From: a virus
Taxonomy: Duplodnaviria > Caudoviricetes
Virus record (IMG/VR): IMGVR_UViG_3300025084_003228
Span: 1-37,266 of that record
Length of the DNA: 37,266 nucleotides
Reading direction: 5' to 3' (one strand)
Part shown: one piece after another, positions 1-25,082 of the stretch
Position numbering within the stretch: position 1 is the stretch's first letter
How the letters are laid out: each line of letters starts with the position of its first letter
Notes under the pieces: generated by a model
The model's database searches: none
What the model was told of the DNA's origin: nothing
The model's input: only the letters and a program-made list of their open reading frames with translations
Translations under genes and position numbers: made by a program

Positions 1-320
1 TTACGGGTGTTACAACAGCAACAGAAACAGTTACTGATAGTGGAAATGATAATGATATAGATTACATAAGTGGAGCTACGTTTGATGATACGACAGGTAT
101 AATTACAGGTACAGGAACAGGTAATGCCGGATTTACTGTTGATATTGATGGTAGGTATTTAACCACTGAAAGTTACACAGCACACGATAATATTACCGCG
201 GCAAGTTCATCTGACAATAGTGGTAGAACATATATACAAGATATCTTATTAGATGGTAATGGTCACGTTACTGGTATAACTACGGCTACGGAAACAGTTA
301 CCGATAGTGGAAATGATAAT
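1..320 (+). repeat. Degenerate intragenic tandem repeat, 267-nt (89-aa) period, in the tail fibre
   Basis: 1-53 (ttacgggtgttacaacagcaacagaaacagttactgatagtggaaatgataat) recurs at 268-320 (ttactggtataactacggctacggaaacagttaccgatagtggaaatgataat). Confidence 0.85.
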
Positions 321-1202
321 TACTATGTTGATGGATTAAGTTTCGATACTGGTAATGGTGTTCTTACGGCGAGTGTGAATGGGGCAACTAATCAGACAGT
401 CGATTTAGACGGTAGATATGCACTTTCATCTCACGATCATAATAGAATTACCGAGAACGCAACAATTACATTCGGAGCGGCTCAACTTCAATGGATGGAT
501 CAGAGTGGTAATGGAGGTACAGGTATGAATGGTGCGGCACCACAAAATCCGAATAGTGATTGGCATTATCAAATGATCATGAACCACGCTAATAGTGCTG
601 GTTATTATGTACAAATGGCGTTTGATTTCCATGATGATCAAGTATGGTTCCAAAGAATGGAAAATGGTTCATTACAGGGTTGGAGAGAATTTATACACTC
701 AGGAAATATTGGATCCCAATCAGTGAGTTATGCGGCCACAGCGGGATCGGCCGACCAGATTGATGGGATTCCGTTTAGAAACACAAACCACACTGCAGGG
801 ATTAACGCAGACACCTTAGATAGTGCGGGTATCACATACTACACAGCTGGGGTAGATAATTTTTCAGGGAATGCAACGGACGGAGCACTCTATTCACAAA
901 TATATAGTTCATCATGGCAACATCAAATTGCGGGTGACTATAGAAGTGGACGAATTGCCGTTAGAGGTAAAAATAATAGTACTTGGCAATCTTGGAAAAA
1001 GATACCGGCGGTTAATGTTTCTACATTCGTTAATGTGAGTATCGTTACTTTTACCCATGGTTTAGGAACCGATAATGTAATTGTACAGGTATATGACAGT
1101 AATGGTGATTTATTTTTCCCTTCGGCGATAAATTCTTTAAATGGGGTGGTTGTGGTTAAATTTGAAACAAGTAGATCAGGAAGAGTAGTCGTAACAGGAT
1201 AA
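3..1202 (+). CDS. Tail fibre protein, C-terminal part (gene begins upstream of the window)
   Basis: The frame of ORF 375..1202 is open back to base 3 (TGVTTATETVTDSGNDN...). It has T/G/D-rich repeats with 'VD(I/L)DGRY', two knob-like segments (ending ...GWREFIHSGNI and ...WQSWKKI) and a terminal 'THGLGTDNVIVQVYD' module typical of phage fibres. Confidence 0.8.
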   Translation, partial: TGVTTATETVTDSGNDNDIDYISGATFDDTTGIITGTGTGNAGFTVDIDGRYLTTESYTAHDNITAASSSDNSGRTYIQDILLDGNGHVTGITTATETVTDSGNDNYYVDGLSFDTGNGVLTASVNGATNQTVDLDGRYALSSHDHNRITENATITFGAAQLQWMDQSGNGGTGMNGAAPQNPNSDWHYQMIMNHANSAGYYVQMAFDFHDDQVWFQRMENGSLQGWREFIHSGNIGSQSVSYAATAGSADQIDGIPFRNTNHTAGINADTLDSAGITYYTAGVDNFSGNATDGALYSQIYSSSWQHQIAGDYRSGRIAVRGKNNSTWQSWKKIPAVNVSTFVNVSIVTFTHGLGTDNVIVQVYDSNGDLFFPSAINSLNGVVVVKFETSRSGRVVVTG

Positions 1203-1213: not shown

Positions 1214-2353
1214 ATGATTAGAGAAAACGTAATAGTTAGTGGTTCACTTGACGTGAGTGGACAATTTATCATACCGAGAGGTAGTAGAGGGGAAAGACCC
1301 ACTTCACCTGAGGTTGGTTCTATGTACTTAGAAGAATCTACAAGTGGTAGTTTCGTTGTTACATATACTGGGTCATCTAATTATGATGATGGTTGGGAAC
1401 CAGTGGGTTCACAAGATACTGACAGAACAGGATTCAAATACAGACAAATAATAAACTATTCATATTTGGCAGGTGGATATAAGTCAGGTTCACCATGGAA
1501 GAATGTACATAAAACAATTAACGCAACCGACCAAACATCTCACTTAGGTGAGTTATTAGATTACCCAGCAAACTATACCTCAGGGGCGTGTAGTAAAACT
1601 AAATTATTTCTTTGGTCCACAAATACTGACGGTGGTAATAAAGGAGCCACCACCATACATTCAACCCACACATCTGGTGTTGATATGGTAAACGAGACCA
1701 CATACGCACACCAATCTAAATGGGATTTATTAAATGCCAGGGATGATTGTGGGACTTTATTTAAGGAAACTGAATTTGCATACGTTTTTGGTGGATCGGT
1801 GGCGACTGTAGAAAAATTTAATTTAACTAACGAGACAATGTACACCACTTATTATCCAGGTGGATCACCTTATGTTACAACAACACTATCCATTACAAGT
1901 ACATTAGGTTCTTCAGGATTTTCTGATGAAAACTATGGTTATGGGTATGGTTCCCAAAGTGGGAACAAATGTCACTTTGCAACTGATGTGTTCGAGACAA
2001 GAGCATCTTCATGGGCATCTAGTGGACAACAAAAAGGAATTAGTTCTAAAGTTGGTAAAGGTTATTGTGGAAATGAAGGTACATATAATGGAGGTTACAA
2101 TTTAAGAAGGTGGGATGTTTTTACCGAAACTAATATTGGTAATGTTCCTAAACCACACGCAAATTGTGGGGAAGAGAATTTTACAATGGGACAAGACCAT
2201 CAATACATGTTAGCAACATACGATGGTACGGGTCAATCAAATGCGAGTTGGAAATTCTCATATACAACAGATACAGGTACGGTAAATCCTGCAGGGTTAG
2301 CACCAGGTGTTAACGCAGGTGCATCATCAGGACATTGTGGTTGGAGAAATTAA
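1214..2353 (+). CDS. Putative virion/tail-associated beta-propeller-like protein, paralogue 1 of 3
   Basis: N-terminal 'VSGSL...P-x-G-x4-RP-x2-P-x2-GS-x-Y' motif like phage fibre/virion proteins; G/S/Y-rich beta repeats (YLAGGY, YVFGG, GYGYG); ends SSGHCGWRN. Confidence 0.6.
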   Translation: MIRENVIVSGSLDVSGQFIIPRGSRGERPTSPEVGSMYLEESTSGSFVVTYTGSSNYDDGWEPVGSQDTDRTGFKYRQIINYSYLAGGYKSGSPWKNVHKTINATDQTSHLGELLDYPANYTSGACSKTKLFLWSTNTDGGNKGATTIHSTHTSGVDMVNETTYAHQSKWDLLNARDDCGTLFKETEFAYVFGGSVATVEKFNLTNETMYTTYYPGGSPYVTTTLSITSTLGSSGFSDENYGYGYGSQSGNKCHFATDVFETRASSWASSGQQKGISSKVGKGYCGNEGTYNGGYNLRRWDVFTETNIGNVPKPHANCGEENFTMGQDHQYMLATYDGTGQSNASWKFSYTTDTGTVNPAGLAPGVNAGASSGHCGWRN

Positions 2354-2365
2354 CTATTTATAGAT

Positions 2366-3484
2366 ATGATATTTGAAAATTTAGAAATTAGTGGATCATT
2401 AAGAGGACAAGGACCTACAAGACCTCCTTCAGGTTTGAAGGCGAGTAGACCATCTTCACCAGAAAATGGGTCTCTATATTTAGAAATGACAACCTCAGGT
2501 AGTTTTGATAATAGTTTCTTAATGGTTTATACGGGTAATGGAAACGACGGTGGATGGGAAAGAATTGCAAATCAAAGTAATTTTGGTAAAACTAGTTTCA
2601 AGTACAATCAGATAATAAACTATTCATATTTAGCGGGTGGTTACAAATCAAGTTCACCTTGGAAGAATGTACACAAAACAGTAAACGCAACCGACCAAAC
2701 ATCTCACTTAGGTGAGTTATTGGATTATCCCGCATCGTATACCTCAGGGGCATGTAGTAGAACAATTTTCTATGTTTGGTCTGTTAATGATGATGGTGCT
2801 TGGAAAAGTGCGGGTAATGTACATGGTACAACCACGTCAGCAGTAAATATGATGACCGATACCAACTATGCACATACCGCGGCAATGGATACTACCATAT
2901 CAAGAAGTGATTTAGGTACTATGTTTAAAGAAACTGAAATGGCATACCTTTTTAGTGGTGGTTCAACAACCGTGGAATTATTTAATTTAACTACAGAATC
3001 TTTACATACCGCATATACATTAACAACAATAAACGGTAGTGATGGTGCTTCCGCATTTTCAGATGAACTCCATGGTTATGGTTGGACATCGGGCGCTGGT
3101 GTAAAATTAAATTTTGCAACCGAAACATTTACAACCTCGGATCGTTGGGGTAATCACTCACAACAAAAAGGAATTAGTTCTAAGGTTGGAAAGGGTTATG
3201 CCGGTAATGAAGGTTCATATAATGGAGGTTACAATTTAAGAAGATGGAGTAATCAAACAGACACGAATATTGGTAACGTCCCTAAACCTGACGGAAATTG
3301 TGGTGAAGAAAACTTTACTATGGGTCAGGATTGGCAGTATATGTTAGGTAATTATAATGGTTTACAAAATAATAATGCGTGGAAATTCACGTATTCAACA
3401 GACACAGGAACTACAAGTGTTACAGGTTTAAATCCCGCGGTAAACCCAGGGACTTCTTCTGGACATTGTGGTTGGAGAGAATAA
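2366..3484 (+). CDS. Putative virion/tail-associated beta-propeller-like protein, paralogue 2 of 3
   Basis: Collinear with 1214..2353 (INYSYLAGGYKSSSPWKNVHK, QQKGISSKVGKGY, NCGEENF); ends SSGHCGWRE. Confidence 0.6.
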   Translation: MIFENLEISGSLRGQGPTRPPSGLKASRPSSPENGSLYLEMTTSGSFDNSFLMVYTGNGNDGGWERIANQSNFGKTSFKYNQIINYSYLAGGYKSSSPWKNVHKTVNATDQTSHLGELLDYPASYTSGACSRTIFYVWSVNDDGAWKSAGNVHGTTTSAVNMMTDTNYAHTAAMDTTISRSDLGTMFKETEMAYLFSGGSTTVELFNLTTESLHTAYTLTTINGSDGASAFSDELHGYGWTSGAGVKLNFATETFTTSDRWGNHSQQKGISSKVGKGYAGNEGSYNGGYNLRRWSNQTDTNIGNVPKPDGNCGEENFTMGQDWQYMLGNYNGLQNNNAWKFTYSTDTGTTSVTGLNPAVNPGTSSGHCGWRE

Positions 3485-3496
3485 AATAGAAAGAAT

Positions 3497-4612
3497 ATGA
3501 TATACGAAAATATGTCCGTTAGTGGTTCACTTAAAGTGGACAGAGTCACTGCAAGACCACCGAAAGGTGTTAAGTCACAGAGACCATCGAACCCATTATC
3601 GGGTTCTTTATTCTTGGAAGAATCATCCGAACACACAAGTTATCTTATGGTTTATACTGGTGTTTCAAATATAGAAAATGGTTGGGAACGAATATCGGCA
3701 CAACAGAATGAAGGGACTAACTTTAAGTACAGACAAATAATAAACTATTCGTATATGGCTGGTGGTTACAAATCAAGTTCACCTTGGAAGAATGTACACA
3801 AAGCGACTAATGCAACTGATCAGACAACACACATAGGTGAGTTATTAGACTACCCTGCAAACTATACCTCAGGAGCATGTAGTAAATCTATATTTTATAT
3901 GTGGTCCGTGAACACTGATAATGGACACAAAGGACCGACAACTCTACATAGTAACACAACTTCAGCGGTTAATATGATGACGGACACTAACTACGCACAC
4001 CAATCTAACCACGACTTACAATATAGTAGGTCCGATTGTGGAACCATGTGGAAAGAACATGAGTTTGCTTGGATTTTCGCGGGTAACAGAACTGAGGTGG
4101 ATAAATTTAATTTAAGTAATGAAACGACAATAACAAACTATGGTGTAACCTCGATAAGTAGTAGTGGTGGAGCGAGTTCGTTCTGTAATGAAACTCATGG
4201 TTATGGATGGAGTACAAGTAGTATAAAAATGGAATTCTCTACGGAGACCATATCAAGTGCGTCAAGTTCATGGTCAGCACACGGACAACAAAAAGGTATT
4301 GCGTCTAAAGTTGGTAAGGGTTATGCCGGTAATGAGGGATCTTACCAAGGTGGTTACAATTTGAGAAGATGGGATACATCTACAGATACTAATATTGGTA
4401 ATGTTTCTAAGTTAAGACCTAATTGTGGTGAAGAGAATTTCGCAATGGGACAGGATTGGCAATACATGTTAGGTTGTTACGGTAGTAGTCTTCAAAATAA
4501 CGATAGTTGGAAGATGTATTATCAAACAGACACAGGTGTTTTAAATCCGGCAGGTCTTCCACCAGCAGTGAACGCAGGTACGTCTTCAGGTCACTGTGCT
4601 TGGAGAGAATAA
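3497..4612 (+). CDS. Putative virion/tail-associated beta-propeller-like protein, paralogue 3 of 3
   Basis: Same motifs as paralogues 1 and 2; ends SSGHCAWRE. Confidence 0.6.
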   Translation: MIYENMSVSGSLKVDRVTARPPKGVKSQRPSNPLSGSLFLEESSEHTSYLMVYTGVSNIENGWERISAQQNEGTNFKYRQIINYSYMAGGYKSSSPWKNVHKATNATDQTTHIGELLDYPANYTSGACSKSIFYMWSVNTDNGHKGPTTLHSNTTSAVNMMTDTNYAHQSNHDLQYSRSDCGTMWKEHEFAWIFAGNRTEVDKFNLSNETTITNYGVTSISSSGGASSFCNETHGYGWSTSSIKMEFSTETISSASSSWSAHGQQKGIASKVGKGYAGNEGSYQGGYNLRRWDTSTDTNIGNVSKLRPNCGEENFAMGQDWQYMLGCYGSSLQNNDSWKMYYQTDTGVLNPAGLPPAVNAGTSSGHCAWRE

Positions 4613-4672
4613 TACCATTTTACACTTTATTTAATTCTTTTTTATACTTATATTATAGTAAAATTTTATTAT

Positions 4673-5419
4673 ATGCAAGACTTTAAATACGAAAGAGATG
4701 GTGTTAACTCTAAACTCATAGAAATAGCGGAACAGGTATCATTCGCACTACCGAGATATAAGGCAGAGACTTTTGTTGGGGGAGCACAAATTACTCCATA
4801 CGCAAAATTGAAACAGTGGTTACTCGAACTCAGAGGTCGTGAAGATGCGGTCGAACATTTAGAGTATACTGTACAAAAACAAGACTTAGAAATACAAATA
4901 CAAGAGGAGAGTAAAGAATTTCTTACCGACCCCAAAAGAAAACAATTAGTTGACCTTAATATTGCGGATATGAAGATTGACCTTAGAAAGTTTAAAAGAA
5001 ACTTGAAGGACGCTTATATTGAGAGACAAGGGTTTATTGACCTAATAAAAGATTTCTTAGACACTGATGACGCCAAACTACCTGACGGATCTAATTTAAT
5101 AGATGTTATAGGTAATAAAGAATTAGAAGATAAATTTGAACACGAGTATTGGACGGTTAGAATGGCAAAACAAGCCATGTTAGATATGATATCGTATGGT
5201 AGAGTAGGTACAGGTAACTTAGATTCTATTTTAATGATGTCGGCCGAACAACAGAAACAAGTTTTATCACTTGCTTCCTCTTACACAGTATTTATAGATA
5301 AGAACATTAATCAACTAATGTCTAACGCAACAACAAATAGTTTCTCCATTGAAGAATCATTGAGGAATCAACTTAAGTTGGGTAAGGCAGATAAACCTGA
5401 TACTGAAAAACTTTTATAA
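4673..5419 (+). CDS. Alpha-helical/coiled-coil hypothetical protein
   Basis: 248-aa ORF with heptad-like E/K/Q/L segments; stop overlaps the next start (TAATG). Confidence 0.65.
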   Translation: MQDFKYERDGVNSKLIEIAEQVSFALPRYKAETFVGGAQITPYAKLKQWLLELRGREDAVEHLEYTVQKQDLEIQIQEESKEFLTDPKRKQLVDLNIADMKIDLRKFKRNLKDAYIERQGFIDLIKDFLDTDDAKLPDGSNLIDVIGNKELEDKFEHEYWTVRMAKQAMLDMISYGRVGTGNLDSILMMSAEQQKQVLSLASSYTVFIDKNINQLMSNATTNSFSIEESLRNQLKLGKADKPDTEKLL

Positions 5420-6159
5420 TGAGACATATTATTTTTAAAATAACTGGTGAAATCCCTGGATACATTAAAGTTATTGGATCCTACATGAATTATTACTACG
5501 GACGTATTGAAGACATATACGACGATATGAGATTAGATTTGGATAAGTTTAATGCCTCTGTTATAACTGAAGATGTGGGAAAGGGTTTTATTTTTGCCGA
5601 CATTTATAAAAGTTATGTGAGTATTAGAACAAACTCTTCACTGATGGATGAGGTACCTGTTTTAGCAGAGTCTTCAGAAACCGAGGAAGAAAAAATTAAA
5701 TACACACTTACAGATGAGGACAAACAATTAGGTGTTGATTTTAACAAAGCGGTTCTTCTAAAGGTTATTGCGGATAGATTCTTTACAAGATATAAAGATC
5801 TTATGGTTGACGTATCTGATTTAGAGAAAGATACGTGGGAAGAACAAAAAAGAGAGGCATTTGCATATGAAGAGAATAGTAACTACCCAACACCTGTAAT
5901 AGACATACTTTCAAGTGGTAGGGGTATCGAGAAACAAGTATTAGTGGATAAGATTATATCCAATGTTACAACATATAACACAAAATTAGCGACACTACTT
6001 CTTGAACAACAACTTTTAGAAACAAAAGTTAAAAATTGTAACACCATTGCGGATTGTCACAGGGTAAGACATGAGAAATTTGGTGTAGGTATGAGTAGAC
6101 AACAAAAGATTGATGAGGAAATTGAGACAACCCCACTGACACTGAAGATAGATTTCTAA
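5419..6159 (+). CDS. Tail fibre assembly/chaperone-like protein
   Basis: C-terminal 'EKDTWEEQKREA...TPVIDILSSGRGIEKQVLVDKI...QQLLE' resembles the E-x2-TW-x2-Q-x2-EA...TP...RG pattern of phage tail-fibre assembly proteins. Confidence 0.55.
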   Translation: MRHIIFKITGEIPGYIKVIGSYMNYYYGRIEDIYDDMRLDLDKFNASVITEDVGKGFIFADIYKSYVSIRTNSSLMDEVPVLAESSETEEEKIKYTLTDEDKQLGVDFNKAVLLKVIADRFFTRYKDLMVDVSDLEKDTWEEQKREAFAYEENSNYPTPVIDILSSGRGIEKQVLVDKIISNVTTYNTKLATLLLEQQLLETKVKNCNTIADCHRVRHEKFGVGMSRQQKIDEEIETTPLTLKIDF

Positions 6160-6169
6160 AAATAACTAA

Positions 6170-7168
6170 ATGAATTTAGCAATAAATGGTACATGTGCTA
6201 AAGGTTGTTCGTTCTGTTTTACAAAAGAAGATGCAAGACTAAAACATACTCTTGGTGAGATGTCGATAGAAAAGGTGGGTGAGTTACTTGACCACTTTGA
6301 TGTTAAAGGATCTAGAGAAGAGGTCACTATTTTAGGTGGTGAACCAACACAACATTCAAACTTTATAGGACTAATGGACTATATAATCTCAAGGGGTTAT
6401 AAAGTTAATTTAGTAAGTAACTTATTATTTGGTAAAAGAACATTAGATTACATAGTCACCAACATAAGACACATTAAGTGGGTTCTACCTAATGGTGCGG
6501 AATTAGATGAAAAGAATAGATTAAATCTATTCAAAAAGAATTACCTATCACTATATACAGCGTACGCCAATACGTGGGGTTTTGAAGAAAACTCAAGATT
6601 GTTCATCGCACTAACATTATCGTCGGATTGGAAGGAAAGAAAAATGTACGATTACATAAAGTGGTTGTATCATGCATTGGATGGTAAACTAAATGCAATA
6701 AGGTTAGGTTTAGATCTGACAGGTACCTATCTGATTAATAATAAAGAGATGGGTGAGGAGGTTACCAAAATACTTAAATTTGGGATGTACAACAATATAA
6801 GGGTTACATCTGATTGTCAAGTACCTCCATGTTTATGGGAGGGTAAAACAAAAGAATCAATTATACAAAACTCATTTGATTTTGCGACCTTTAAAGTAAA
6901 AGGGTATGATAAGATATGTGGGTTTATGCCGTTAGACATCTTTCCTGATGGTTCGTCTATTCATTGTTATCCTTTACAAGACAAAGTTAAGATAGATAAT
7001 GTATTGAAAATTTCAGGAGAAAATAATATATTAACTCTAAGAGATGAGTTCGATGATCTTTATAGGGAGAATCATAAAAATTATAAAATACCACAAGACT
7101 GTTTAGATTGTGTTTTTTACAAGACAGAATGTAATGGAATATGTGGAGGATGTTTAGAGAATGAGTAA
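6170..7168 (+). CDS. Radical SAM enzyme with SPASM/twitch-like C-terminal domain
   Basis: CxxxCxxC (CAKGCSFC), GGEPT motif, CQVPPC, CGFMPLDIFPDGSSIHC and C-terminal CLDC-x5-CNGICGGC. Confidence 0.9.
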   Translation: MNLAINGTCAKGCSFCFTKEDARLKHTLGEMSIEKVGELLDHFDVKGSREEVTILGGEPTQHSNFIGLMDYIISRGYKVNLVSNLLFGKRTLDYIVTNIRHIKWVLPNGAELDEKNRLNLFKKNYLSLYTAYANTWGFEENSRLFIALTLSSDWKERKMYDYIKWLYHALDGKLNAIRLGLDLTGTYLINNKEMGEEVTKILKFGMYNNIRVTSDCQVPPCLWEGKTKESIIQNSFDFATFKVKGYDKICGFMPLDIFPDGSSIHCYPLQDKVKIDNVLKISGENNILTLRDEFDDLYRENHKNYKIPQDCLDCVFYKTECNGICGGCLENE

Positions 7169-8201
7169 GATTTTTTCAATACCGTTAAACCCGATGTTAA
7201 GTGAACAAGCATTCACACATGTGTTCTATCCTTTTTTAAAGGAACACAAGGATTGGATTTATGATATATATTTCACGTGTAGGATACCACCATTTACTCA
7301 AGATGCGATGGGATCAATTATAGATGATAATGATAGAAACTCTGTTTTTGAAAATGCAATGATGATACAAGAATCGTTAGGTATAAAAGTAAGTGCAACT
7401 TTTAATAATTTCAACGTATCACCAAAGTATGAAAATTATAAACTCTTTATTGATAATTTAAAACCACTCTATGAGAAAGGGTTAAGGTCTATGACAATTC
7501 CTCATGGTCATTGGGTGGCCATGGGACTAAAGGACCATTTTCCTGAGATGCATATTAAAAACACCATACTCAGAAAGGTTAACACCGCACAAGATTTTTG
7601 GTATTCCGCCGAACAAGGTTTTGATTACATTAATGTAGACAGAATATTGATGAGGGATATGGAAGAATTAAAAAACATTAGAAGAGCACAACTAATGTTT
7701 CAACAAAAACACGGTAGGTATATTGAAATAGCGTTACTTACTAATGAAGGTTGTTTGGGTAGGTGTCCTGTTATGGATGAACACTATTCATATAATAACC
7801 TTAGAAAACCAAACGAATTACCATACTTTCATCATGAAATATCTAAAGTTACATGTGAACACAAATGGGAAGACGAGGTAGATGCGTTCTTTTTTAAAAC
7901 TGCAACAATTCCTCCATTCAAAGAGGAGTTTAACGAATACCTAAACCATATTGACGTTTTTAAAATGCACGGTAGAGATAGTTTTGATAGACTTAATGAA
8001 ACTATGGAAATTATTGAGTCATATTCCAAAGGTAAAGAGGTGTTGTCTTCATCCTCTAAAACATATTTAGATGGTGTACCATACGAAGAGTTAAGAGGGT
8101 GGAGAAAGAAAATTAAGAAATGTAAATTTCAATGTTGGGATTGTAACTATTGTGATATAGTATCGGAACACAAAAAAAGAAAACTTAATGGACCTAATTA
8201 A
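7161..8201 (+). CDS. Peptidase U32-like Fe-S protein (RlhA/TrhP/UbiUV superfamily)
   Basis: 'GFDYINVDR', 'IEIALLTNEGCLGRCP', 'DVFKMHGR' (cf. U32 SLKIEGR) and a C-terminal CKFQCWDCNYC cluster. Confidence 0.75.
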   Translation: MSKIFSIPLNPMLSEQAFTHVFYPFLKEHKDWIYDIYFTCRIPPFTQDAMGSIIDDNDRNSVFENAMMIQESLGIKVSATFNNFNVSPKYENYKLFIDNLKPLYEKGLRSMTIPHGHWVAMGLKDHFPEMHIKNTILRKVNTAQDFWYSAEQGFDYINVDRILMRDMEELKNIRRAQLMFQQKHGRYIEIALLTNEGCLGRCPVMDEHYSYNNLRKPNELPYFHHEISKVTCEHKWEDEVDAFFFKTATIPPFKEEFNEYLNHIDVFKMHGRDSFDRLNETMEIIESYSKGKEVLSSSSKTYLDGVPYEELRGWRKKIKKCKFQCWDCNYCDIVSEHKKRKLNGPN

Positions 8202-8853
8202 ACACATAGACAACTCAATTAGGTGGGGTGAAAGAGAAGTATCCAAACTTAACCAAGACGTATTAAACATTCACGGAATTACAAGTAACAAAGTAAGGTC
8301 ATTACTCAACAACATATGTTCAATAGGTGGGACGTACTTAGAGATTGGGGTTTTCAGAGGTGCAACCTTCTGTTCTGCCATTTATAATAATGATAATCTA
8401 CATGGTATTGGGATTGACAATTTTGCATCACCAAACCTAATGCCGATGGGTGTAAGTCAAAAATTGGCATCTTATCTAAAACAAGGGTTAGATGTAACAC
8501 CACAGGAAAACTTCTTAGACAATGTTAAGCGGTTCGGAGACCCTGATAGGTTAGATATATATAAAACAGATTATACAACCTTTGATTATTCCCAACTACC
8601 TAAATTAGATATTATTTTTTATGATGGAGACACCAAATTCCATGATCAGTATGTTACACTTAAAAAAATAATCCCTCAATTTTCAGACAAGACAATACTA
8701 ATAATGGATGATTGGAATTGGGATAGTGGTGCTCTCTATAGAATCATAGATGAGGAAAAATTGTTCGTATCACACCAAAAAGAAATCTTTACAAAGGGTG
8801 AAGATATGGAAGATTTTTGGAACGGAATTGGTATATTTCTTATAGAAAAATAG
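8188..8853 (+). CDS. Class I SAM-dependent methyltransferase (Methyltransf_24-like)
   Basis: YLEIGVFRGAT (motif I), GIDNF, DIIFYDGD, LIMDDWNW. Confidence 0.85.
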   Translation: MDLIKHIDNSIRWGEREVSKLNQDVLNIHGITSNKVRSLLNNICSIGGTYLEIGVFRGATFCSAIYNNDNLHGIGIDNFASPNLMPMGVSQKLASYLKQGLDVTPQENFLDNVKRFGDPDRLDIYKTDYTTFDYSQLPKLDIIFYDGDTKFHDQYVTLKKIIPQFSDKTILIMDDWNWDSGALYRIIDEEKLFVSHQKEIFTKGEDMEDFWNGIGIFLIEK

Positions 8854-8889: not shown

Positions 8890-10647
8890 ATGAGAAAGTT
8901 TATTTTTTACATAGTAATCGCACTACTATTTTGTAATGTAGGATACTCCCAAACCAAAGTAGATACACTAAAAGTAAAGACTTTAGATGAGGTTGTCGTG
9001 GTTGCAGGAACTAACTACCAAGTTAGACAAGTATATATCGAACCTAAGATATATGAAAGGTCAATACAATTACAACAGACAAGTCCGGGTCAACTAAGTC
9101 CTTTCTTAGGTGGATTCACAGGTAACCAAGTTGATCAAGTCATAAACGATATAAGGTTTAATAGTGCATTATTCAGAACAGGTCCTAATCAATACTTTGG
9201 GTGGGTACCTATGAATTTTACTAAGAGAATAAGGATTAGTGATGGAGGTAATATAGGTGGTACAATTAATAGAGAGTTAGGTATCGACTCATCATCAATA
9301 AAACTATCTTATGATGGTGGTGTAAATGGAACAACTAATTATATTTCTTACAAAGAAGGTAAGTTTGGTATTGCGGTTAATAGTATTATAAACGATAATG
9401 TAAGGTCCGTGGGTGGTGAGATACCACACAGTTCTTATAATCAGAATTCATTAATCACTGAGTATCAATGGTCTAATAAAAATAAAACTACTTTTCTCTT
9501 CACCCAATCCAACGATTTAGAGAGAACTGATAAATGGAATGGTGGTGAAAGAATAAATGGTTTCCAAGATCCTAAAATCTATACGTGGGAATTACAGAGA
9601 TATATTTTACTTAATCATAAGTACGATTATAAGGATCTAAAAGTAAACTTTGCATATCAAAACTTCTCAGAAAATATACTCAACAAAACAACAAGAATAA
9701 AAAGTAGATTAAATTCGTTCACTATAAATGGTGAATATATGGTTAGTGACAATCTTGAACTATATACATCTAATGTAATTGAACATATTGATTACCAAAC
9801 TGAAGGTGTTGATTATGTCCCTAATGACCTTTACAAAACATTCAAACAAGGACTTAGGTGGGATATAAAACTTAAAGGGTTTAATGTGTTTGTAAGTGGT
9901 GGATACAAGACAGTAAAGATTACAGATATTGAACCATTCAGTGGATTCGAAAGTTCCTTTATTATAGGTAAGAAGGGTTTCTTTGGAAGTTATGTAAGGT
10001 CTTTAAACGCACCTAGCTACCTTATGGTAAAACAATCTATTACAACGGGTAAGGCCGAGCAACTACCTAATCCTGATCTTAAACAGGAAAACTCAGACTC
10101 GTATAGGGTTGGGTATAAGAATAGGGGTTTCTATGTGGACTTTAATTATAGGTTATTGAATGATGCAATAAGTACCATATTCATTAATTCAGATACCATC
10201 CAAACAGTAAATCAAGGTAAAATAAAGGTATGGTCATCAAATGTGGGGTTTAATAAAGATAACCTACTTAATAGGGGTATTAGTCTTAAGTCTAGGTTAG
10301 AATATGTTTATGGTAAAACATCGACAGATGAACCAATCAACAAAGTTTCTCCATTTAGAACCTACGTTAAGATAAGTAAGGATAATTTGTGGGTAGATTG
10401 GTCATTTCAAATTAAAGACGATGAACTATCTGAAAACGATTTGAATGATGTTAGACAGTATGCCCACAACAAGGGAGTGAACATAATCTCTGTAGGTTAT
10501 GACCATACGTTATTTAAACATAAAAATAATCCTATTAATTTGGGAGTATCCGTTTATAATATTCTAAATAATGAAAGTAGAATAACTGGATCATCAACAG
10601 ACTTACCTAAGAGGTCTGTGTTGTTCAATTTAAAAATGAATTTATGA
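8890..10647 (+). CDS. TonB-dependent receptor-like outer-membrane protein (compact, about 585 aa)
   Basis: ATG at 8890 gives a signal peptide (MRKFIFYIVIALLFCNVGYSQ). Also 'TLDEVVVVA' TonB-box-like segment, plug-like 'QQTSPGQLSPFLGGFTGNQV...RFNSALFRTGPNQY', 'PNPDLKQE', 'VYNILN' and terminal beta strand 'RSVLFNLKMNL'. Confidence 0.8.
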   Translation: MRKFIFYIVIALLFCNVGYSQTKVDTLKVKTLDEVVVVAGTNYQVRQVYIEPKIYERSIQLQQTSPGQLSPFLGGFTGNQVDQVINDIRFNSALFRTGPNQYFGWVPMNFTKRIRISDGGNIGGTINRELGIDSSSIKLSYDGGVNGTTNYISYKEGKFGIAVNSIINDNVRSVGGEIPHSSYNQNSLITEYQWSNKNKTTFLFTQSNDLERTDKWNGGERINGFQDPKIYTWELQRYILLNHKYDYKDLKVNFAYQNFSENILNKTTRIKSRLNSFTINGEYMVSDNLELYTSNVIEHIDYQTEGVDYVPNDLYKTFKQGLRWDIKLKGFNVFVSGGYKTVKITDIEPFSGFESSFIIGKKGFFGSYVRSLNAPSYLMVKQSITTGKAEQLPNPDLKQENSDSYRVGYKNRGFYVDFNYRLLNDAISTIFINSDTIQTVNQGKIKVWSSNVGFNKDNLLNRGISLKSRLEYVYGKTSTDEPINKVSPFRTYVKISKDNLWVDWSFQIKDDELSENDLNDVRQYAHNKGVNIISVGYDHTLFKHKNNPINLGVSVYNILNNESRITGSSTDLPKRSVLFNLKMNL

Positions 10648-11660
10648 TAGATGTAATATTAAATAACCAACACTTCCTTATATACCTTTCATTTATAATG
10701 GTTATAACAGGTATTTTAAAAGAGAGAGGGTATTTGGTAGATGTATTTAGTTTAATACTTAAAACGGTTAAATCTAAGAAGTTAGTTTTATTTCTAATAT
10801 CTTTATTTGGTGGGGTGTTACCTATACCCGGTAGGGTTGCGGTTTCTGCGGGTATACTTGATACCATTGCACCTAAAGATAAAGAAGGGAGAGAGAATTA
10901 CGGAATAATTGACTACCTGTCAACACACCATTATTATATATGGTCACCATTAGAAAAGACAGTTATAATACCTATGGCAATTTTAGGTATCACATATGGG
11001 GAACTAATGAATATGGTTTACCCATTACTTATAATATCCATAGTCGTTATAGGTACATACATTTACAAATTTAAAGACGGGAACATTGAAATACCTAAAG
11101 ATCACCAGGTTAATTATAAGAACATATATTCAATATTCCTACCCTTCATACTAACATTAGTATTGGCGGGTTTAACGGATCGTTATTTACCTTTATTTTG
11201 TGGATTCACCCTTTACTTAGTAAGTTACTCCAATTCGTGGGGTAAACTATTAAAACACGTCAGATGGAGATTAGTTTTGAGTGTGGGTATTGTGATTATT
11301 GTTTCTAATCTTATTTCGTTATATGGTAATGAAATAAAAACTAATTTAGAAGGGTATACATCCGAACATAACATACTCTTAGTTGGTACCTTATGTTTTA
11401 TTGGATCATTTCTATTAGGGTCATCAGGGAAGTACGCAGGGATAGTCTCATTAGTAACCTCTATTATGGGAATACAATATTTTCTATTCTTATTTACCAT
11501 GTGTTATTCAGGTTACCTTTTATCCCCAACACACAAATGTATCTACATTGGACAACAGTATTTTGGTACTCCAATTAAAAAATATTTATTATCCATTTCG
11601 GTTTGGGTAATAATTATGATAGTCTATAGTTATTTAGACTTGACTTTTACAATTAAATAA
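10644..11660 (+). CDS. Multi-pass membrane transporter-like protein (IT superfamily/DUF401-like)
   Basis: About 10 hydrophobic segments; 'GGVLPIPGRVAVSAG', 'HHYYIWSPLE', 'GYLLSPTHKC'. Start overlaps the receptor's stop (ATGA). Confidence 0.7.
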   Translation: MIDVILNNQHFLIYLSFIMVITGILKERGYLVDVFSLILKTVKSKKLVLFLISLFGGVLPIPGRVAVSAGILDTIAPKDKEGRENYGIIDYLSTHHYYIWSPLEKTVIIPMAILGITYGELMNMVYPLLIISIVVIGTYIYKFKDGNIEIPKDHQVNYKNIYSIFLPFILTLVLAGLTDRYLPLFCGFTLYLVSYSNSWGKLLKHVRWRLVLSVGIVIIVSNLISLYGNEIKTNLEGYTSEHNILLVGTLCFIGSFLLGSSGKYAGIVSLVTSIMGIQYFLFLFTMCYSGYLLSPTHKCIYIGQQYFGTPIKKYLLSISVWVIIMIVYSYLDLTFTIK

Positions 11661-12129: not shown

Positions 12130-13230
12130 TTAAACCTTCTTTTTAATTATGATTTTCAAATTTCCGATTTGATATTCCCCTACATCGTAGTGTGGAATTG
12201 ATAATCGGATTTTGTTTATTGTGTGAAGATCTTCTTCGTTCATTGATTCGGTTTCAATAATCATCACGTCTACAATATCACATAATAAGAATTTAGATCT
12301 TAAATCGTAGTTAGTGTTAGGTTGTTCATTTGCAATATATTCGGTGGGTGTAGTGCCACCTAAATACAATTTATCAAAATAAGGTTCTAACTTATATAGG
12401 TGTTTGTCACTCCTCAATTCAATACCCATATTAAACGTTGGGTAATTAAAAATTTCATCTTCCCAATAATACAGTTCGTTGAATGTAGGTATTGTGATAC
12501 CCCATTTACGTATAAAGTTACGTATGTTTCTATGTTCACTTAATTTACTTTCTTCGGACCTTAACACTCTACTTGTTTTAGAAACAAAGTGATATACTAC
12601 AGCACACTCTGTTGTCTTAAGTAAGTAACCTTTTAATTTGGCTCTAATAATGAAATCATCATCTTCACAGAAAAAAGGATCAAAAGTAAAACCATCAAAT
12701 AAACCAACATCAATAAATGTTTTCTTATAACCCGACATAAAAAATGTACCTCCATTAACTAAGTCCTTTCTTTCCTTAACTTTGTCAACGTATTGATCAA
12801 ATAAGTGATAATTAAAATCGTTAAATCCTCTACCTAATTCTAATATAACTTTACCAGGTCTTTTATGTCCTTTAAAAATTGGGGGTTCAATAGTAGTGTA
12901 TGTAATAAGAGATTTTTCATCAATCAGTTCCGATAGATTCTCTAAAAAATTCTTACCGATGACCATATCATTATGAATCAAAACCAACTTATCTGTATCA
13001 ACTAACTTTATAGCTGAATTATAATTGTCTGAGAAAGTTAATTGGTCATCATCGTGTATAAAGGAAAGGTTATCATCATCCAAAGATTGTAACCAATCTA
13101 ATGTACCATCTGTAGAACCACCACTACTAATCACCATAGGTGCGTCAGGATATATATCCCTAACCCTCTCATAGGTATTCTTAGTATAGTCTAAGTTGTT
13201 AAAAACAGCAAGTACTAAAGATATATCCAT
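12130..13230 (-). CDS. Glycosyltransferase family 2
   Basis: ISLVLAVFN, GGSTDGT, IHNDM, FDPFFCEDDDF, VYHFVSKT. Confidence 0.9.
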   Translation of the reverse strand: MDISLVLAVFNNLDYTKNTYERVRDIYPDAPMVISSGGSTDGTLDWLQSLDDDNLSFIHDDDQLTFSDNYNSAIKLVDTDKLVLIHNDMVIGKNFLENLSELIDEKSLITYTTIEPPIFKGHKRPGKVILELGRGFNDFNYHLFDQYVDKVKERKDLVNGGTFFMSGYKKTFIDVGLFDGFTFDPFFCEDDDFIIRAKLKGYLLKTTECAVVYHFVSKTSRVLRSEESKLSEHRNIRNFIRKWGITIPTFNELYYWEDEIFNYPTFNMGIELRSDKHLYKLEPYFDKLYLGGTTPTEYIANEQPNTNYDLRSKFLLCDIVDVMIIETESMNEEDLHTINKIRLSIPHYDVGEYQIGNLKIIIKKKV

Positions 13231-13835
13231 TATTTATTAGTATCATCAAATATTGAAATGAATAGTCGTTCGAAGATCCACGGACCTAATACTCTATCGA
13301 CACACAACTCGTTGGCCTTTTTATAAAACTCCACACTTCTCATTCTGATCGTATCTCTACTAACCGCAAATATTGCACCAGCAGTAAATGGGTATAGTTC
13401 AAGGGGTGGGTCTTCAAATAGTTCTACCCAAACACCATTTATATCCATACCTCCGTGATGTGGTAAACCGTTTGGTTTTGAATGTAAAACTCTTTTATAA
13501 TGATGACTATTACTAAAAAATAGTGATTGGTTAGGTTTTTCAAAAACCACTGATCTATTTGTATTTGGAAACTCTTTTAAAACCTCTTTGTAATTTGTAA
13601 CGTGATCAAATGGATGTCCTTGAGTAAAGAATACCCAATCACTTAAATTATCGTAATTTTTTATTATGTGAGTTAGATACGTGTTACCTTCTCGACCAAT
13701 GTTAGGTAAATTAATAGAATCTTCGATAGGTTCCCCTTTATTATATAAAAAAATTCTATAATCGGAAAACTCCGATAACCAAGATATATCCTCCTTATAC
13801 CTACTTACAATTAAATCACCTTTGTAGTTCGTCAT
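13230..13835 (-). CDS. DUF3431-like glycosyltransferase-associated protein
   Basis: IVSRYKEDISW, NIGREGNTYLTHI, FTQGHPFDH, GAIFAVS, FERLF. Start moved to MTNYKG (13835) to minimise overlap. Confidence 0.7.
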   Translation of the reverse strand: MTNYKGDLIVSRYKEDISWLSEFSDYRIFLYNKGEPIEDSINLPNIGREGNTYLTHIIKNYDNLSDWVFFTQGHPFDHVTNYKEVLKEFPNTNRSVVFEKPNQSLFFSNSHHYKRVLHSKPNGLPHHGGMDINGVWVELFEDPPLELYPFTAGAIFAVSRDTIRMRSVEFYKKANELCVDRVLGPWIFERLFISIFDDTNK

Positions 13836-14445
13836 AATAGTTATTTTGTTTTTCTTGTTTTTTAATATCTTTATGATGTATGAGTGAAAATGTTTCATCC
13901 TCAGGTAAGTTAGTATATGTATTATAGTTTACTAACCTTTCATGTACTTTACCGTACCATCTTATTCTACTTTCTTTTTTCCATATTCTTGTCTGAGTGT
14001 CAGGAAAATTTACCCACCCTATGGAGTTTACATTCCAACCCCACTTTTTAATGTGTTCGTCTGTCAAACCTTCAACAGTATTCACTCTCGAAATTAAGAA
14101 TACTTCGTTTTTAGGGTTCGCCTCAAGTATCGTTGGTAGATAGTTGATTAAATTTAAATGAGGTATTTCATCCGCATCAATTTGAAAGATGTAATCACCA
14201 TTACAATAATCTGAAAGTGTATTTTTCCACTCACCAAAATGACCATCGAAGAAACCTCTCCACATTTGAAAGTTAGGTAACTTATTATGTTTGACTAACC
14301 ATTCCGATACTTCTTCGGAACCATTTTTCTGATCGTATAAAACAACTATTTCATCCTTAGGTCTTTTGGTCCTAAGTAGAAACTCAACGAGACGTTTTAT
14401 TTCTTCGAATTCATCACAGACAGTTATTGCGTAACTAATTTTCAT
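13816..14445 (-). CDS. Glycosyltransferase family 2
   Basis: KISYAITVCDE, DYIFQIDADE, FPDTQTRIW, GKVHERL. Confidence 0.9.
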   Translation of the reverse strand: MKISYAITVCDEFEEIKRLVEFLLRTKRPKDEIVVLYDQKNGSEEVSEWLVKHNKLPNFQMWRGFFDGHFGEWKNTLSDYCNGDYIFQIDADEIPHLNLINYLPTILEANPKNEVFLISRVNTVEGLTDEHIKKWGWNVNSIGWVNFPDTQTRIWKKESRIRWYGKVHERLVNYNTYTNLPEDETFSLIHHKDIKKQEKQNNYYDELQR

Positions 14446-15291
14446 TTATAAACTTTTTATATAATTTTCTAATCTATCTTTTGGTATCCATTTTAGTCTT
14501 TCTACCATATCGTTATTTTCTCTAAGTGTGCATCGGTAATTACCCTTCTGTTCAGGTATTAATATATGGTCAACTTCAAACTTATTTTTAAACATCGAGT
14601 ACACTTCATTGATGGAGTAATTTATACCCGTCCCTAACTCCCATGCATCATCATGAGACTTATCGGTCATCCCAATTTTATAAAGACCATCTACGATATC
14701 AACAACGTGTGTAAAGTCCCTTCTTTGTTCACCGTCACCTACGATTGTTATTTTCTCACCATCCCTTACCTGTCTTCTCCAAATACCTATAACTGCTGCC
14801 CAATCTCCATCGACAACTTCATTAGGTCCGTAAACATTATAGAAACGTGCAATTTCACAGTTTAAACCATAAACCTTACGATACATTTTTAATATTTCCT
14901 CACCAAGATGTTTGTAACACGCGTATGGTGATTGATATGGGTCATGCCATCTTGAAGACGAACCCGCATAAATAACTTTAGCCCCAATAGTTTTTGCGAA
15001 TTCACAAACCATTTGAGTACCGGTTACATTAGTATCGTAAGTTAGTAATGGATTTTCAAAAGAGGGTTGTATTCTTGACAGTGCGGCTAAATGATATATA
15101 ATATCAAAATCTTTATCCATAAGATCAATTAACTGTATATCACCTGTATGATAGTTACATCCATCAACTTCATTCTCAATTAAACCACTATCGTAATTAT
15201 CTATTGAGTGAACATCGTGTCCTTCTTTTAATAATCGTTTTATAAGGTTAGTACCGATAAACCCTGCACCACCTGTTACTAATATCTTCAT
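14446..15291 (-). CDS. NAD-dependent epimerase/dehydratase (extended SDR)
   Basis: KILVTGGAGFIG, HLAA, YACYK (YxxxK), RFYNVYGP, GDGEQRRDF. Confidence 0.93.
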   Translation of the reverse strand: MKILVTGGAGFIGTNLIKRLLKEGHDVHSIDNYDSGLIENEVDGCNYHTGDIQLIDLMDKDFDIIYHLAALSRIQPSFENPLLTYDTNVTGTQMVCEFAKTIGAKVIYAGSSSRWHDPYQSPYACYKHLGEEILKMYRKVYGLNCEIARFYNVYGPNEVVDGDWAAVIGIWRRQVRDGEKITIVGDGEQRRDFTHVVDIVDGLYKIGMTDKSHDDAWELGTGINYSINEVYSMFKNKFEVDHILIPEQKGNYRCTLRENNDMVERLKWIPKDRLENYIKSL

Positions 15292-16556
15292 TCCTTTTCA
15301 ATTTTTTTTAATTCAGGTAAAACCAATTTAGTTTTCTTTGGTTTAACTGCGTTTATTATTACTGATTTTAAAATATCTTTAAACTTGACTGTCGTTGATT
15401 CTAAAGAGAAGTTATTTTCATTCTCTTCTTTAAGAAGTTTAGACTTTTCTAAGAACTCTTCATACTTGTCTTTCACAATTTTAAACACCTCAATAACTTC
15501 ACCGTAATTACACGTAAACCATTTAGATTCTTTAAGTATGAAATCATCTGAGGCACTCTCATGTACGTTGGTCAACTTACCACCTAACATTATTGCTTTA
15601 TCCATTGGTAGGAAATCTTTGTGACCCGACCAATTAGATGCAATTATCGGTTTACCCGTCATAGAAAATTCTAATAGAGGTCTCCCAAATCCTTCACCCT
15701 TTGTTAGAGTTACCATTGATTTTACCTTAGGGTGGTTGTATAAGTCGTTCATCTCATTATCGGTGAGTTGTCCAAACAATAAGTAAATTTTGGGTGGACT
15801 ATTATAAGACGATGTAATCCTTTGTATTTTCTTTCTCATCACTTCCCTTTGTTTAATAGAGAAGTTAGCACTGGATGTCTTTAAAATTAATCCAGGGGAA
15901 TCCTCAACACCATTAAACGAATCACAGAAACACTTAATTAACATACCCACGTCTTTCCTGTCTTGTCCAATGTCACCCTTTAACCAATGACCAACAAATA
16001 AGTAATTAAAATCATCTTCTAAATCTAACTCTAAGTCCGATTCTTTCTCATAGTATATTGAAGTATCCACACCTTCATGAAGAACTTCTAAATCTACATT
16101 TATTTTATGTTGAGAGATTAACTTACCTGTTACTTTATCTGTTTCATTATAGACGGTTTGTAGTAAAACATCTCTAGAGAAGGTGGATGTGGTTATAACC
16201 TTATCCATCCTATTTATTCCATCTATCCATTCCTTAGGTGCTGCGGTGGTTTCTATACCCGCTGTGACACCAATATTATACTTACCCTTCCGTTGAAATT
16301 CGTTAGGTACAGTCACTTGAATATACACGTCAGGTATGAAATCTAAACTACTTACAATGTTCTCCTCTATCCAAGTATGAAATAAATTCACCTCGGGTTC
16401 TAAAGCGGTCATGGGAGTCTTACCCCAGTTACAACTGTCAATGTATATGTCAAATGAGTCCATATCATATAAGGACTTCAACAAATCTCTTGAGTGAGAA
16501 CCATAACCACTTAAAGTCTTAATTGGTCCTCTAAATAATAGTTTCTGTTTAATCAT
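15288..16556 (-). CDS. Glycosyltransferase family 4 (GT-B)
   Basis: SGYGSHSR, RKDVGML, TKGEGFGRPLLEF (Ex7E), PIIASNWSGH. Confidence 0.9.
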   Translation of the reverse strand: MIKQKLLFRGPIKTLSGYGSHSRDLLKSLYDMDSFDIYIDSCNWGKTPMTALEPEVNLFHTWIEENIVSSLDFIPDVYIQVTVPNEFQRKGKYNIGVTAGIETTAAPKEWIDGINRMDKVITTSTFSRDVLLQTVYNETDKVTGKLISQHKINVDLEVLHEGVDTSIYYEKESDLELDLEDDFNYLFVGHWLKGDIGQDRKDVGMLIKCFCDSFNGVEDSPGLILKTSSANFSIKQREVMRKKIQRITSSYNSPPKIYLLFGQLTDNEMNDLYNHPKVKSMVTLTKGEGFGRPLLEFSMTGKPIIASNWSGHKDFLPMDKAIMLGGKLTNVHESASDDFILKESKWFTCNYGEVIEVFKIVKDKYEEFLEKSKLLKEENENNFSLESTTVKFKDILKSVIINAVKPKKTKLVLPELKKIEKE

Positions 16557-22574: not shown

Positions 22575-22963
22575 TGCAATTAATAACAACACACCCAATA
22601 AAGAAATCTGATTTAGGATTTCATGCAAACCTATTTGGAGGTAAACTATTAGCATGGTTAGATGCTGCAGGTGCCGCCTACGCCATGGAAATATGTGACA
22701 CACCAAGAATGGTTACTGTCATGATCGATAAATGTCTATTTAAGAAACCCGCTAAAGAGGGACAACTGATTAAAATTTATGGAGATGTTGTTCACGTTGG
22801 TAACACTTCAATCACATTTTACTTAGAGGCAAGAGCACATAACGTATATTCAGGTAGTCAAACAGTTATACTACAAACTAACATTAGGTTTGTTAGAGTC
22901 GACGAAAATGGGGATTCGGTACCTATCTCAGAAAAAGTAAGGAACAAGTATGGACCAAAGTAG
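22574..22963 (+). CDS. HotDog-fold acyl-CoA thioesterase (YciA-like)
   Basis: NLFGGKLLAWLD, VT, FKKP, VGNTSI, FVRVDENG. Confidence 0.88.
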   Translation: MQLITTHPIKKSDLGFHANLFGGKLLAWLDAAGAAYAMEICDTPRMVTVMIDKCLFKKPAKEGQLIKIYGDVVHVGNTSITFYLEARAHNVYSGSQTVILQTNIRFVRVDENGDSVPISEKVRNKYGPK

Positions 22964-23246
22964 TTACAAATTCAGGTTGGACTCAATAAGGAGACGAGTG
23001 GATCAGGTCGATAAAGAACTCTACGAAGTTTTACGAAGAAGATTTCAATTGACTAATCGAATCGGAACCTTAAAGAAAGAATATAATTCTTCTGAAATGT
23101 GTGAATCACGTAAAAATGAAATCATTAACAAACTAAAAGACAATACGTTAAAAGATGACATGTCGATAGATTTAATTGAGTCATTATATAAATTAATAAT
23201 TGATCAATCAATCACAGAACAATCACTTATAATTAAAGATAAGTAA
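22950..23246 (+). CDS. Chorismate mutase type II (AroQ-like)
   Basis: LDSIRRRVDQVDKEL...RRF...IGTLKK...R..E...IIDQSI-x2-Q matches the AroQ pattern. Confidence 0.8.
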   Translation: MDQSSYKFRLDSIRRRVDQVDKELYEVLRRRFQLTNRIGTLKKEYNSSEMCESRKNEIINKLKDNTLKDDMSIDLIESLYKLIIDQSITEQSLIIKDK

Positions 23247-24752: not shown

Positions 24753-25082
24753 ATGGTAGACGTAACAGAAATAGCAATAGAAAAAATAGTTGGTTTAATG
24801 ATGGAAGGTGGTATAACTCCTGACACTCACAACCTTAGGGTTGGTGTAAGTGGTGGTGGTTGTAGTGGTTTACAGTATGAAATGGACTTCGATGATAAGA
24901 TAAATGAGGGGGACAGTGTATTTGAAGTGGATGCAATCAAGGTGGTTATTAATAAACCTTCACTACTTTATTTAGCGGGAACGGTATTAGATTTCCAAGG
25001 AGGTTTAAACGGTAAAGGGTTTGAATGGATCAATCCAAACGCATCAAGAACCTGCGGATGTGGGGAAAGTTTTAGTTTATAA
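24753..25082 (+). CDS. iscA: A-type Fe-S cluster carrier (IscA/HesB family)
   Basis: GGGCSGLQY, YLAGTVLDF, NPNASRTCGCGESF. Confidence 0.92.
   Translation: MVDVTEIAIEKIVGLMMEGGITPDTHNLRVGVSGGGCSGLQYEMDFDDKINEGDSVFEVDAIKVVINKPSLLYLAGTVLDFQGGLNGKGFEWINPNASRTCGCGESFSL

Follow-up and report, generated by a model that had tools for sequence, protein, structure and literature searches.

What is a row of enzyme genes doing directly behind the probable tail-fibre gene of a phage? The question is raised by virus record IMGVR_UViG_3300025084_003228 (Caudoviricetes), a 37-kb record from an aquatic phage that we analysed over its full 37,266 nucleotides (hereafter the window) and that has related loci on contigs of up to 324 kb. 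Eight co-oriented open reading frames (ORFs) occupy positions 1214-8853, with overlaps of 1, 8 and 14 nt as a first-pass annotation of this DNA had described, and gaps of 10-60 nt between the others; the gene list of that annotation also holds, although it left out the barrel and DUF401 permease genes that follow (8893-11660). Our analysis suggests that this module is likely a mobile accessory block that builds and chemically tailors a propeller-tipped fibre appendage late in infection. We base this reading on observed gene order, co-inheritance, late transcription in the cyanophage P-HM2 and a fusion in an extracellular contractile injection system (eCIS), on predicted Kelch and U32 folds, and on biochemical steps that we infer.

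A conserved core inherited together

We searched 50,697 phage records, with tallies by organism taken as totals rather than record by record. The propeller protein was matched in 123 records, and the U32-like protein and the helical protein CC in 126 each. The organism tallies are equal but for three Ralstonia records, and these extra records have a divergent propeller, detected as ORF139 of RP31 (hidden Markov model, E 2e-10) and as an RP12 protein (fold search, E 2e-11); the RP31 gene lies two genes ahead of CC. DUF401 was matched in 12 records of the 50,697 (12 of the 126 module-bearing ones) and the radical SAM protein in none.

The locus set comprised 140 distinct U32-like sequences, with 57 left at <85% identity; the locus scans kept the best 80 matches and are hence biased to close relatives. 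Counting presence anywhere in the locus, the 42 non-redundant loci with at least 4 kb upstream contain the propeller in 36 cases (37 with RP31), CC in 37, the assembly-like gene in 36 and the radical SAM gene in nine. The methyltransferase is found in 39 of the 48 loci with 1 kb downstream and DUF401 in 16 of the 27 with 6 kb downstream. These counts bear out the anticipated co-occurrence of the U32-like gene with the paralogues. They do not support the placing of the radical SAM enzyme in the core: it is limited to one clade (support 0.99) and is missing in some members of that clade (L210, L214). The conserved core consists of the propeller, CC, the assembly-like protein and the U32-like protein, the methyltransferase being usual and the radical SAM enzyme a one-clade add-on. 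Since dozens of distinct loci repeat the same gene order, the arrangement is not a product of chance.

Cyanophages, a jumbo phage of Ralstonia and a bacterial injection machine that contains no DNA also carry the module, with a variable one to three propeller paralogues per genome. The orthologues T4-GC 351-354 mostly form a block in 5 of 16 cyanophages, none with virion proteomics by coordinates (PMC3037559). Clusters of halogenase-like enzymes and 2-oxoglutarate (2OG) oxygenases, judged by tested members, occur in 29 and 28 of the 99 displayed, partly redundant loci, and such genes are common in cyanophages anyway (PMC3037559). CC and the propeller were not found in four of five bacterial metagenome-assembled genomes (MAGs) with U32-like genes, which are incomplete. 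Our literature searches, which mostly excluded subscription journals and bioRxiv supplements, found no published account of the module. Thus, the module is real, widespread and, as far as these searches reached, undescribed.

A link to tail appendages

The tail-appendage link proposed in the first-pass annotation gains support from a propeller-fibre fusion and from late expression. First, the MAG contig G001:C264 (locus L157) shows matches to sheath, tube, baseplate J, gp25, OB-fold spike, AAA ATPase, Pvc16 and eCIS_core, and no capsid or terminase match among the scanned ORFs (most ORFs of its 44 kb). The sheath, tube, baseplate, spike, ATPase and Pvc16/eCIS core, in combination with the lack of head genes, mark this locus as an eCIS. 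Its propeller forms the C-terminus of a 1589-aa protein resembling DUF6519 fibre neighbours, and is followed by CC, the assembly-like protein, the U32-like protein and DUF401, with no methyltransferase. Extracellular contractile injection particles carry no DNA, and they therefore argue against a role of the module on phage DNA. A scan of viral contigs with the eCIS propeller found no relative. Second, genes 098-101 of P-HM2 are all classed as Late (PMC5082946, supplement). A Kelch protein has also been reported in the virion of phage CBB (PMC5259590).

Layout of the window

Table 1. Features of the window bearing on the module.
Feature	Position	Strand	Remarks
Probable tail fibre, C-terminal part	3..1202	+	5' end beyond window edge; presumed fibre
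Propeller paralogue 1 (PHROG 1417)	1214..2353	+	~80-aa N-terminal segment and predicted 6-blade Kelch propeller
Propeller paralogue 2	2366..3484	+	Model pLDDT 84; predicted Kelch propeller at residues 81-372
Propeller paralogue 3	3497..4612	+	PHROG match; paralogy to first copy
CC, helical protein (PHROG 1409)	4673..5419	+	Accompanies the U32-like gene most faithfully
Tail-fibre-assembly-like helical protein (PHROG 1604)	5419..6159	+	Label a lead only
Radical SAM enzyme (CxxxCxxC), read as SPASM-like from nine additional invariant cysteines	6170..7168	+	Clade-specific add-on
Divergent U32-fold TIM barrel, 346 aa	7161..8201	+	Fold and profile links
Class I methyltransferase (PF13578)	8188..8853	+	Best solved relative TrmR/YrrM; PHROG 1458
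TonB-receptor-like outer-membrane barrel	8893..10647	+	Weak Plug match, under cut-off; swappable slot
DUF401 inner-membrane protein	10644..11660	+	Pfam; accessory
Chorismate mutase type II	22950..23246	+	PF01817, E 4e-14, above cut-off; putative link to module
A-type Fe-S cluster carrier	24753..25082	+	PF01521, E 2e-14; putative link to module

The ORF upstream of the module gave no Pfam or NCBIfam match and a weak PHROG match, and its label as a tail fibre is therefore drawn from relatives. At this position relatives carry an ORF of 1049-1341 aa. The slot before DUF401 varies, holding a TonB-receptor-like protein, a small barrel-like protein or a pilin-type N-methyl protein (window 8893-10647; L169, L210, L209). 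Elsewhere, glycosyltransferases (GT2, GT4), an NAD-dependent epimerase and RmlC at 12130-18178 (minus strand) and 30128-30670 form a separate glycosylation cluster, which also adjoins the module in close relatives. The product of the ORF at 27441-29486 (681 aa) is Cys-rich at its C-terminus and matched neither Pfam nor PHROG. No tRNA genes were found in the window, and an RNA-run search returned three runs (0.05-0.06 of words), which speak neither way.

A divergent branch of the U32 superfamily

Profile alignments and the predicted fold place the product of 7161-8201 in a divergent branch of the U32 superfamily, in line with its first reading as a U32-like Fe-S enzyme. Neither the window protein nor six divergent family members match PF01136 (Peptidase U32) directly; the placement follows from the alignment of the family profile to members that pass the PF01136 cut-off and from motifs held in common. 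These members are L339 (E 1e-13), L271 and L272, matched among the long ORFs of 10 U32 loci, and the U32 protein of phage LC53 (hhalign 82%, E 1e-5). The alignments span most of the protein and share the L.N.GC...C....H, K..GR and C-terminal Cys motifs, while with five canonical U32 members hhalign covered only the N-terminal 117 columns. The model, predicted with a pLDDT (a per-residue confidence score) of 90, is a TIM barrel, for which the U32 protein Mk0906 (5d88) is the top match in Foldseek (E 1.9e-7) and scores Z 16.5 in VIA-align (root-mean-square deviation (rmsd) 3.2, 227 aligned; next best 12.9).

Invariant residues include E196, C198, C202, H208 and K268-x-H-G-R, with C232 near-invariant and further cysteines at the C-terminus (C321, C325, C328, C331). 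The resulting Cys spacing is CX3C-X29-C plus CX3CX2CX2C, versus E162/C170/C177/C193/C197 in TrhP/RlhA. From these seven conserved cysteines the protein is predicted to carry two Fe-S clusters.

Several family members occur outside the module. Those of L172 and L227 adjoin nucleotide genes, with adenylosuccinate-synthetase-like and asparaginase-like genes directly before the U32-like gene of L227 (8189-9964), an arrangement that is possibly a base-modification cluster. The gene of L160 adjoins solute-binding protein and O-methyltransferase genes. In L154 (1-16252), surface protein and sulfation genes are the neighbours, namely a GLUG-motif surface protein, a sulfotransferase, an ATP-grasp ligase and sulfate-activation genes, and in L152 (1-4313) the U32-like gene has an RTX-repeat ORF on one side and a C39 ABC exporter on the other. 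In L158 (8247-11068) it directly follows a PqqD-radical SAM/SPASM gene and a 36-aa Cys-rich ORF. This small ORF resembles a precursor (no NCBIfam match), and a true use of this branch for ribosomally synthesised and post-translationally modified peptides (RiPPs) is possible. Given such diverse neighbours, the U32-like family is not bound to a single target class.

The propeller paralogues

The three paralogues recognised at the outset are indeed related, the second and third being 62% and 60% identical to the first. The model of the second, built on a 120-sequence alignment, has a poorly ordered N-terminal segment followed by a propeller that displays, at the fold level, the six four-stranded blades and GG motifs of the Kelch class; structure comparison links it to KLHL17 (Z 28.8, rmsd 2.5, 269 aligned). 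Pfam Kelch families gave no match for the window propellers. Because a profile of the N-terminal 70 residues matched no other ORF, the fibre-like look of this segment is a judgement by eye only.

The SSGHCxW motif, for which a role as a modification site is not supported, makes up the final strand in the model (E367-371); Kelch convention assigns the closing of the propeller ring to that strand. The His and Cys of the motif are not conserved: of 80 aligned non-redundant propellers, 42 have H367 and 60 have C368. Across 102 propeller sequences, G92, Y93, Y125, E314 and S365 are invariant and K268, E315, Q334, N335 and N336 are kept in more than 90%. The Kelch conventions specify which strands form the ligand-binding side; with strand order taken from predicted secondary structure, all these residues and Y330 would map to that face. 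A galactose-oxidase-type copper site was considered and rejected, the propeller having no invariant His or Cys.

Companion proteins

The best solved match of the methyltransferase profile is a weak one to TrmR (5zw3; E 1.6e-4, 93 columns). In the methyltransferase family of the module, D146, D174, D175 and N177 are invariant and may correspond to the D...DxN/DD.N acidic motif of TrmR/YrrM-type enzymes. The U32 and methyltransferase domains are one gene in cyanophages and are fused in many relatives (PHROG 1458).

For the radical SAM/SPASM enzyme, the core stands (PF04055, E 3e-10, with C9, C13 and C16 of CxxxCxxC invariant), but the SPASM domain gave no PF13186 match, and we read it as SPASM-like because of nine invariant C-terminal cysteines in 22 sequences. 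The core begins at residue 8, and no match to PqqD or a RiPP recognition element (RRE) was seen. Its profile gave only weak core matches against the PDB, and an alignment scan returned close relatives only.

CC retains Q48, E52, E117, W160, R163, Q167, D171, G181 and N182 down to 25% identity; nine invariant and mostly polar residues are, by sequence, more than a plain coiled coil needs. Its profile matched 381 clusters at E<=1e-10, with no name among the 10 looked up, and there was no usable match in the Atlas. In a predicted complex of propeller, U32-like protein and CC, CC scored 0.19 against a mark of 0.32, which speaks neither way. The assembly-like protein matches the Atlas row PF27318 HI1402_helical (0.90) and no Pfam family. 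PDB sequence searches with the U32, propeller, CC and assembly-like profiles returned nothing meaningful.

Proposed oxygen donor and candidate supply genes

Prephenate is the oxygen donor of U32-dependent hydroxylation by UbiUV and has been proposed for other U32 proteins (PMC10990095); TrhP also needs it, and TrmR is the partner of TrhP (PMC6599085). The chorismate mutase of the window would supply prephenate, and the window further codes for an Fe-S carrier; both are circumstantial to the module. The mutase also occurs in one of three related records (G411) and the carrier in four of five. In the window a thymidylate synthase, a hotdog thioesterase (PF03061) and the mutase stand in a row (21552-23246), a trio likewise found in G411. 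We considered whether this thymidylate synthase might be a hydroxy-dCMP synthase and rejected it, as the canonical Asp and Asn are kept (RSVD, PFN); D169N is the mark of hydroxy-dCMP synthases (PMC13326640).

In L209 and L225, genes for shikimate dehydrogenase, DAHP synthase, EPSP synthase, chorismate synthase and kinase/DHQ synthase lie between the propeller genes, and L219 carries shikimate dehydrogenase and DAHP synthase genes beside them. The near-complete pathway of L209 (5343-11722) is interleaved with propeller genes behind a fibre gene, and likewise at L219 and L225. No chorismate mutase was seen at these three loci, and a viral-contig scan with the L209 chorismate synthase found no relative.

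In phage LC53 (L343:4718-6923) the related U32 gene directly precedes a chorismate mutase gene, in the company of a hydroxy-dCMP-type synthase. This pair supports a U32-prephenate link in phages, though in a DNA-modification setting. Hydroxylation in that cluster has been assigned to the thymidylate-synthase homologue with O2, and in the available portions of the paper U32, prephenate and chorismate do not occur (PMC13326640). Together, the U32 protein and the mutase could make 5-hydroxycytosine by a route that needs no oxygen.

Proposed mechanism and competing explanations

We propose that the propellers would be mounted on fibres with the aid of the assembly-like protein. The U32-like enzyme may hold one Fe-S cluster at the barrel (C198, C202, H208 or E196, C232) and, at the C-terminus, another that relays electrons. 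With CC as its partner, it would oxidise an aromatic ring and add a hydroxyl group from prephenate, the likeliest acceptor being one of the tyrosines or tryptophans on the conserved face of the propeller (Y93, W99, Y125, Y325, Y330) or else a neighbouring fibre protein. Where present, the TrmR-like enzyme would cap the hydroxyl as a methoxy group, and the radical SAM, halogenase-like and 2OG-oxygenase genes may provide lineage-specific extra decorations. Prephenate-dependent hydroxylation followed by O-methylation of the fibre appendage is a serious possibility, if somewhat short of an even bet. In its protein-directed form, in which Tyr or Trp residues of the propeller at the fibre tip would receive prephenate-derived oxygen and become catechol- or methoxy-type residues, or else a cofactor derived from the protein itself, the proposal is tentative and slightly less probable, as it is when joined with the idea that some phages and injection machines supply their own prephenate and Fe-S machinery.

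Several points weigh against this scheme. To our knowledge, every U32 target characterised so far is either an RNA base or a quinone ring, and the substrate of TrmR is tRNA. Conserved Tyr and Gly residues are common in Kelch repeats for structural reasons. The U32-like protein does not retain the canonical CX6CX15CX3/4C motif or the E162 position, and five of the 42 U32-like genes lack the module, with L149, L172 and L227 located among nucleotide-metabolism genes. The chorismate mutase of the window lies 14 kb from the module, beside the thymidylate synthase; it is over cut-off in none of five other related records, including the 97%-complete G406, and was not found in the cyanophage records. 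The eCIS case is a single MAG contig, two of 401 genomes of the order being matched, the other with a different U32 subgroup. The DUF401/barrel pair suggests a transported small molecule. No direct hydroxylase activity in vitro has been reported even for RlhA and TrhP (PMC10990095). Finally, ORF135-139 of RP31 are not among its 32 virion proteins found by gel-band mass spectrometry, whereas ORF133, ORF140 and ORF150 are (PMC5468394, Table S3), a list that found only 17 of 28 predicted structural proteins.

One alternative is that the enzymes make a small aromatic ligand or cofactor that is loaded into the pocket of the fibre-borne propeller, the tip being an enzyme or a metal/siderophore mimic, with the barrel and DUF401 importing a precursor or moving the product. 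We regard it as rather unlikely, transporter role included, but worth keeping in play: as mapped by strand order, the conserved polar residues gather on the ligand face, in contrast to a receptor-binding tip, which would vary; in RP31 and in the eCIS the gene right after the U32 gene is DUF401; the shikimate genes of L209 could supply not only the oxygen donor but also a ring substrate; and the nearest bacterial U32 subgroup adjoins biosynthetic genes. However, DUF401 accompanies the module in just 12 of 126 cultured-phage records and 16 of 27 loci, the core has no scaffold-building enzyme, and the face mapping comes from secondary structure rather than coordinates.

It is improbable that the U32-like enzyme and the methyltransferase modify a tRNA, rRNA or DNA base (5-hydroxy- to 5-methoxypyrimidine) and merely hitch-hike in the fibre locus. 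TrhP and TrmR are a known pair of this kind, the LC53 U32 gene lies beside a chorismate mutase and a thymidylate-synthase homologue in a hydroxycytosine cluster, and genes for dCTP deaminase and ligase are neighbours of the branch L149/L172/L227, which lacks the module. Yet the module is kept in a DNA-free eCIS, is expressed late and retains its propeller and CC partners across very different hosts, while the window has a canonical thymidylate synthase without the D169N mark and no tRNA gene.

Kelch propellers are typical substrate adaptors, and the propeller might instead be the substrate-recognition subunit of a soluble propeller-CC-U32 complex that modifies a host or phage protein within the cell, for example in a superinfection block. 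The conserved face, the RP31 propeller, which lacks the N-terminal extension and was not seen in virions, and the module-less bacterial loci L152, L154 and L158, whose neighbouring genes encode secreted or surface proteins and a PqqD-radical SAM protein, would fit such an adaptor. The fusion to an eCIS fibre protein and the variable one to three paralogues per genome, as for adhesins, go the other way, and we consider this reading improbable.

A narrow form of the original RiPP-like proposal, with the radical SAM enzyme cross-linking the cysteine of SSGHCxW, is very improbable. Of 30 propellers from radical-SAM loci, 27-29 have C130, C312 and C368, against 12-32 of the 50-51 from other loci, but this contrast tracks the clade and so is not independent; the enzyme has been lost by some members of its clade (L210, L214) and was matched in no cultured phage, and neither an RRE nor a short precursor was seen, the 10-60 nt gaps leaving no room for one.

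Significance

U32 proteins use an organic oxygen donor, and most of their subfamilies have no known substrate (PMC10990095). The module offers a compact case, often with U32 and methyltransferase in a single chain, in cultured cyanophages such as P-SSM4, P-HM2 and S-RIM2, where target and chemistry are directly testable. If tailoring of the fibre appendage is correct, U32 chemistry directed at protein would be seen for the first time, and virion appendages would have a post-translational tailoring pathway dedicated to them, in which swappable enzymes (radical SAM, halogenase-like, 2OG oxygenases) would tune host binding. If the fibre tip is the target, host recognition would gain a covalent chemical layer missed by sequence-based host prediction, and marine-phage genes for halogenase-like enzymes and 2OG oxygenases, which are currently interpreted as aids to metabolism, may encode enzymes that tailor the virion.

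Relationship to known systems

The maturation of quinohemoprotein amine dehydrogenase (radical SAM/SPASM enzyme QhpD, flavin hydroxylase QhpG) combines a propeller subunit, a radical SAM enzyme and the hydroxylation of an aromatic residue on a protein, as proposed for the module; unlike that system, the module has no heme or small cross-linked subunit, its radical SAM enzyme is optional and its hydroxylase would be of the U32 type.

Like TrhP and TrmR/YrrM of Bacillus subtilis, which convert tRNA U34 to 5-hydroxyuridine (ho5U) and then 5-methoxyuridine (mo5U) (PMC6599085), the module pairs a predicted U32-fold Fe-S protein with a putative TrmR-like O-methyltransferase. It differs in Cys spacing, an extra C-terminal four-Cys cluster, frequent gene fusion and its fibre-locus partners. 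With UbiU/UbiV/UbiT (PMC10990095, bioRxiv 587956) it shares the U32 fold, predicted Fe-S clusters, an accessory partner and a prephenate supply gene in the genome. In contrast to UbiU/UbiV, it has only one U32 gene, whose product carries both Cys sets on the same chain, and no quinone genes nearby; CC was not SCP2-like by any search run.

Among phages, the U32 protein of the LC53/RB69-like arabinosyl-hydroxycytosine cluster (RB69p050; PMC13326640) belongs to the same C-terminal-Cys subgroup, with a chorismate mutase in the genome, but unlike the module its gene sits in a DNA-modification cluster; LC53 was not among the organisms matched by the propeller or CC searches. The virion protein CBB_552 (PMC5259590) likewise has a six-blade Kelch fold in a phage structural region. 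T4-GC 351-354 of the cyanomyoviruses (PMC3037559) are direct orthologues of the module, and of these T4-GC 351 is annotated only as 'similar to sericin'.

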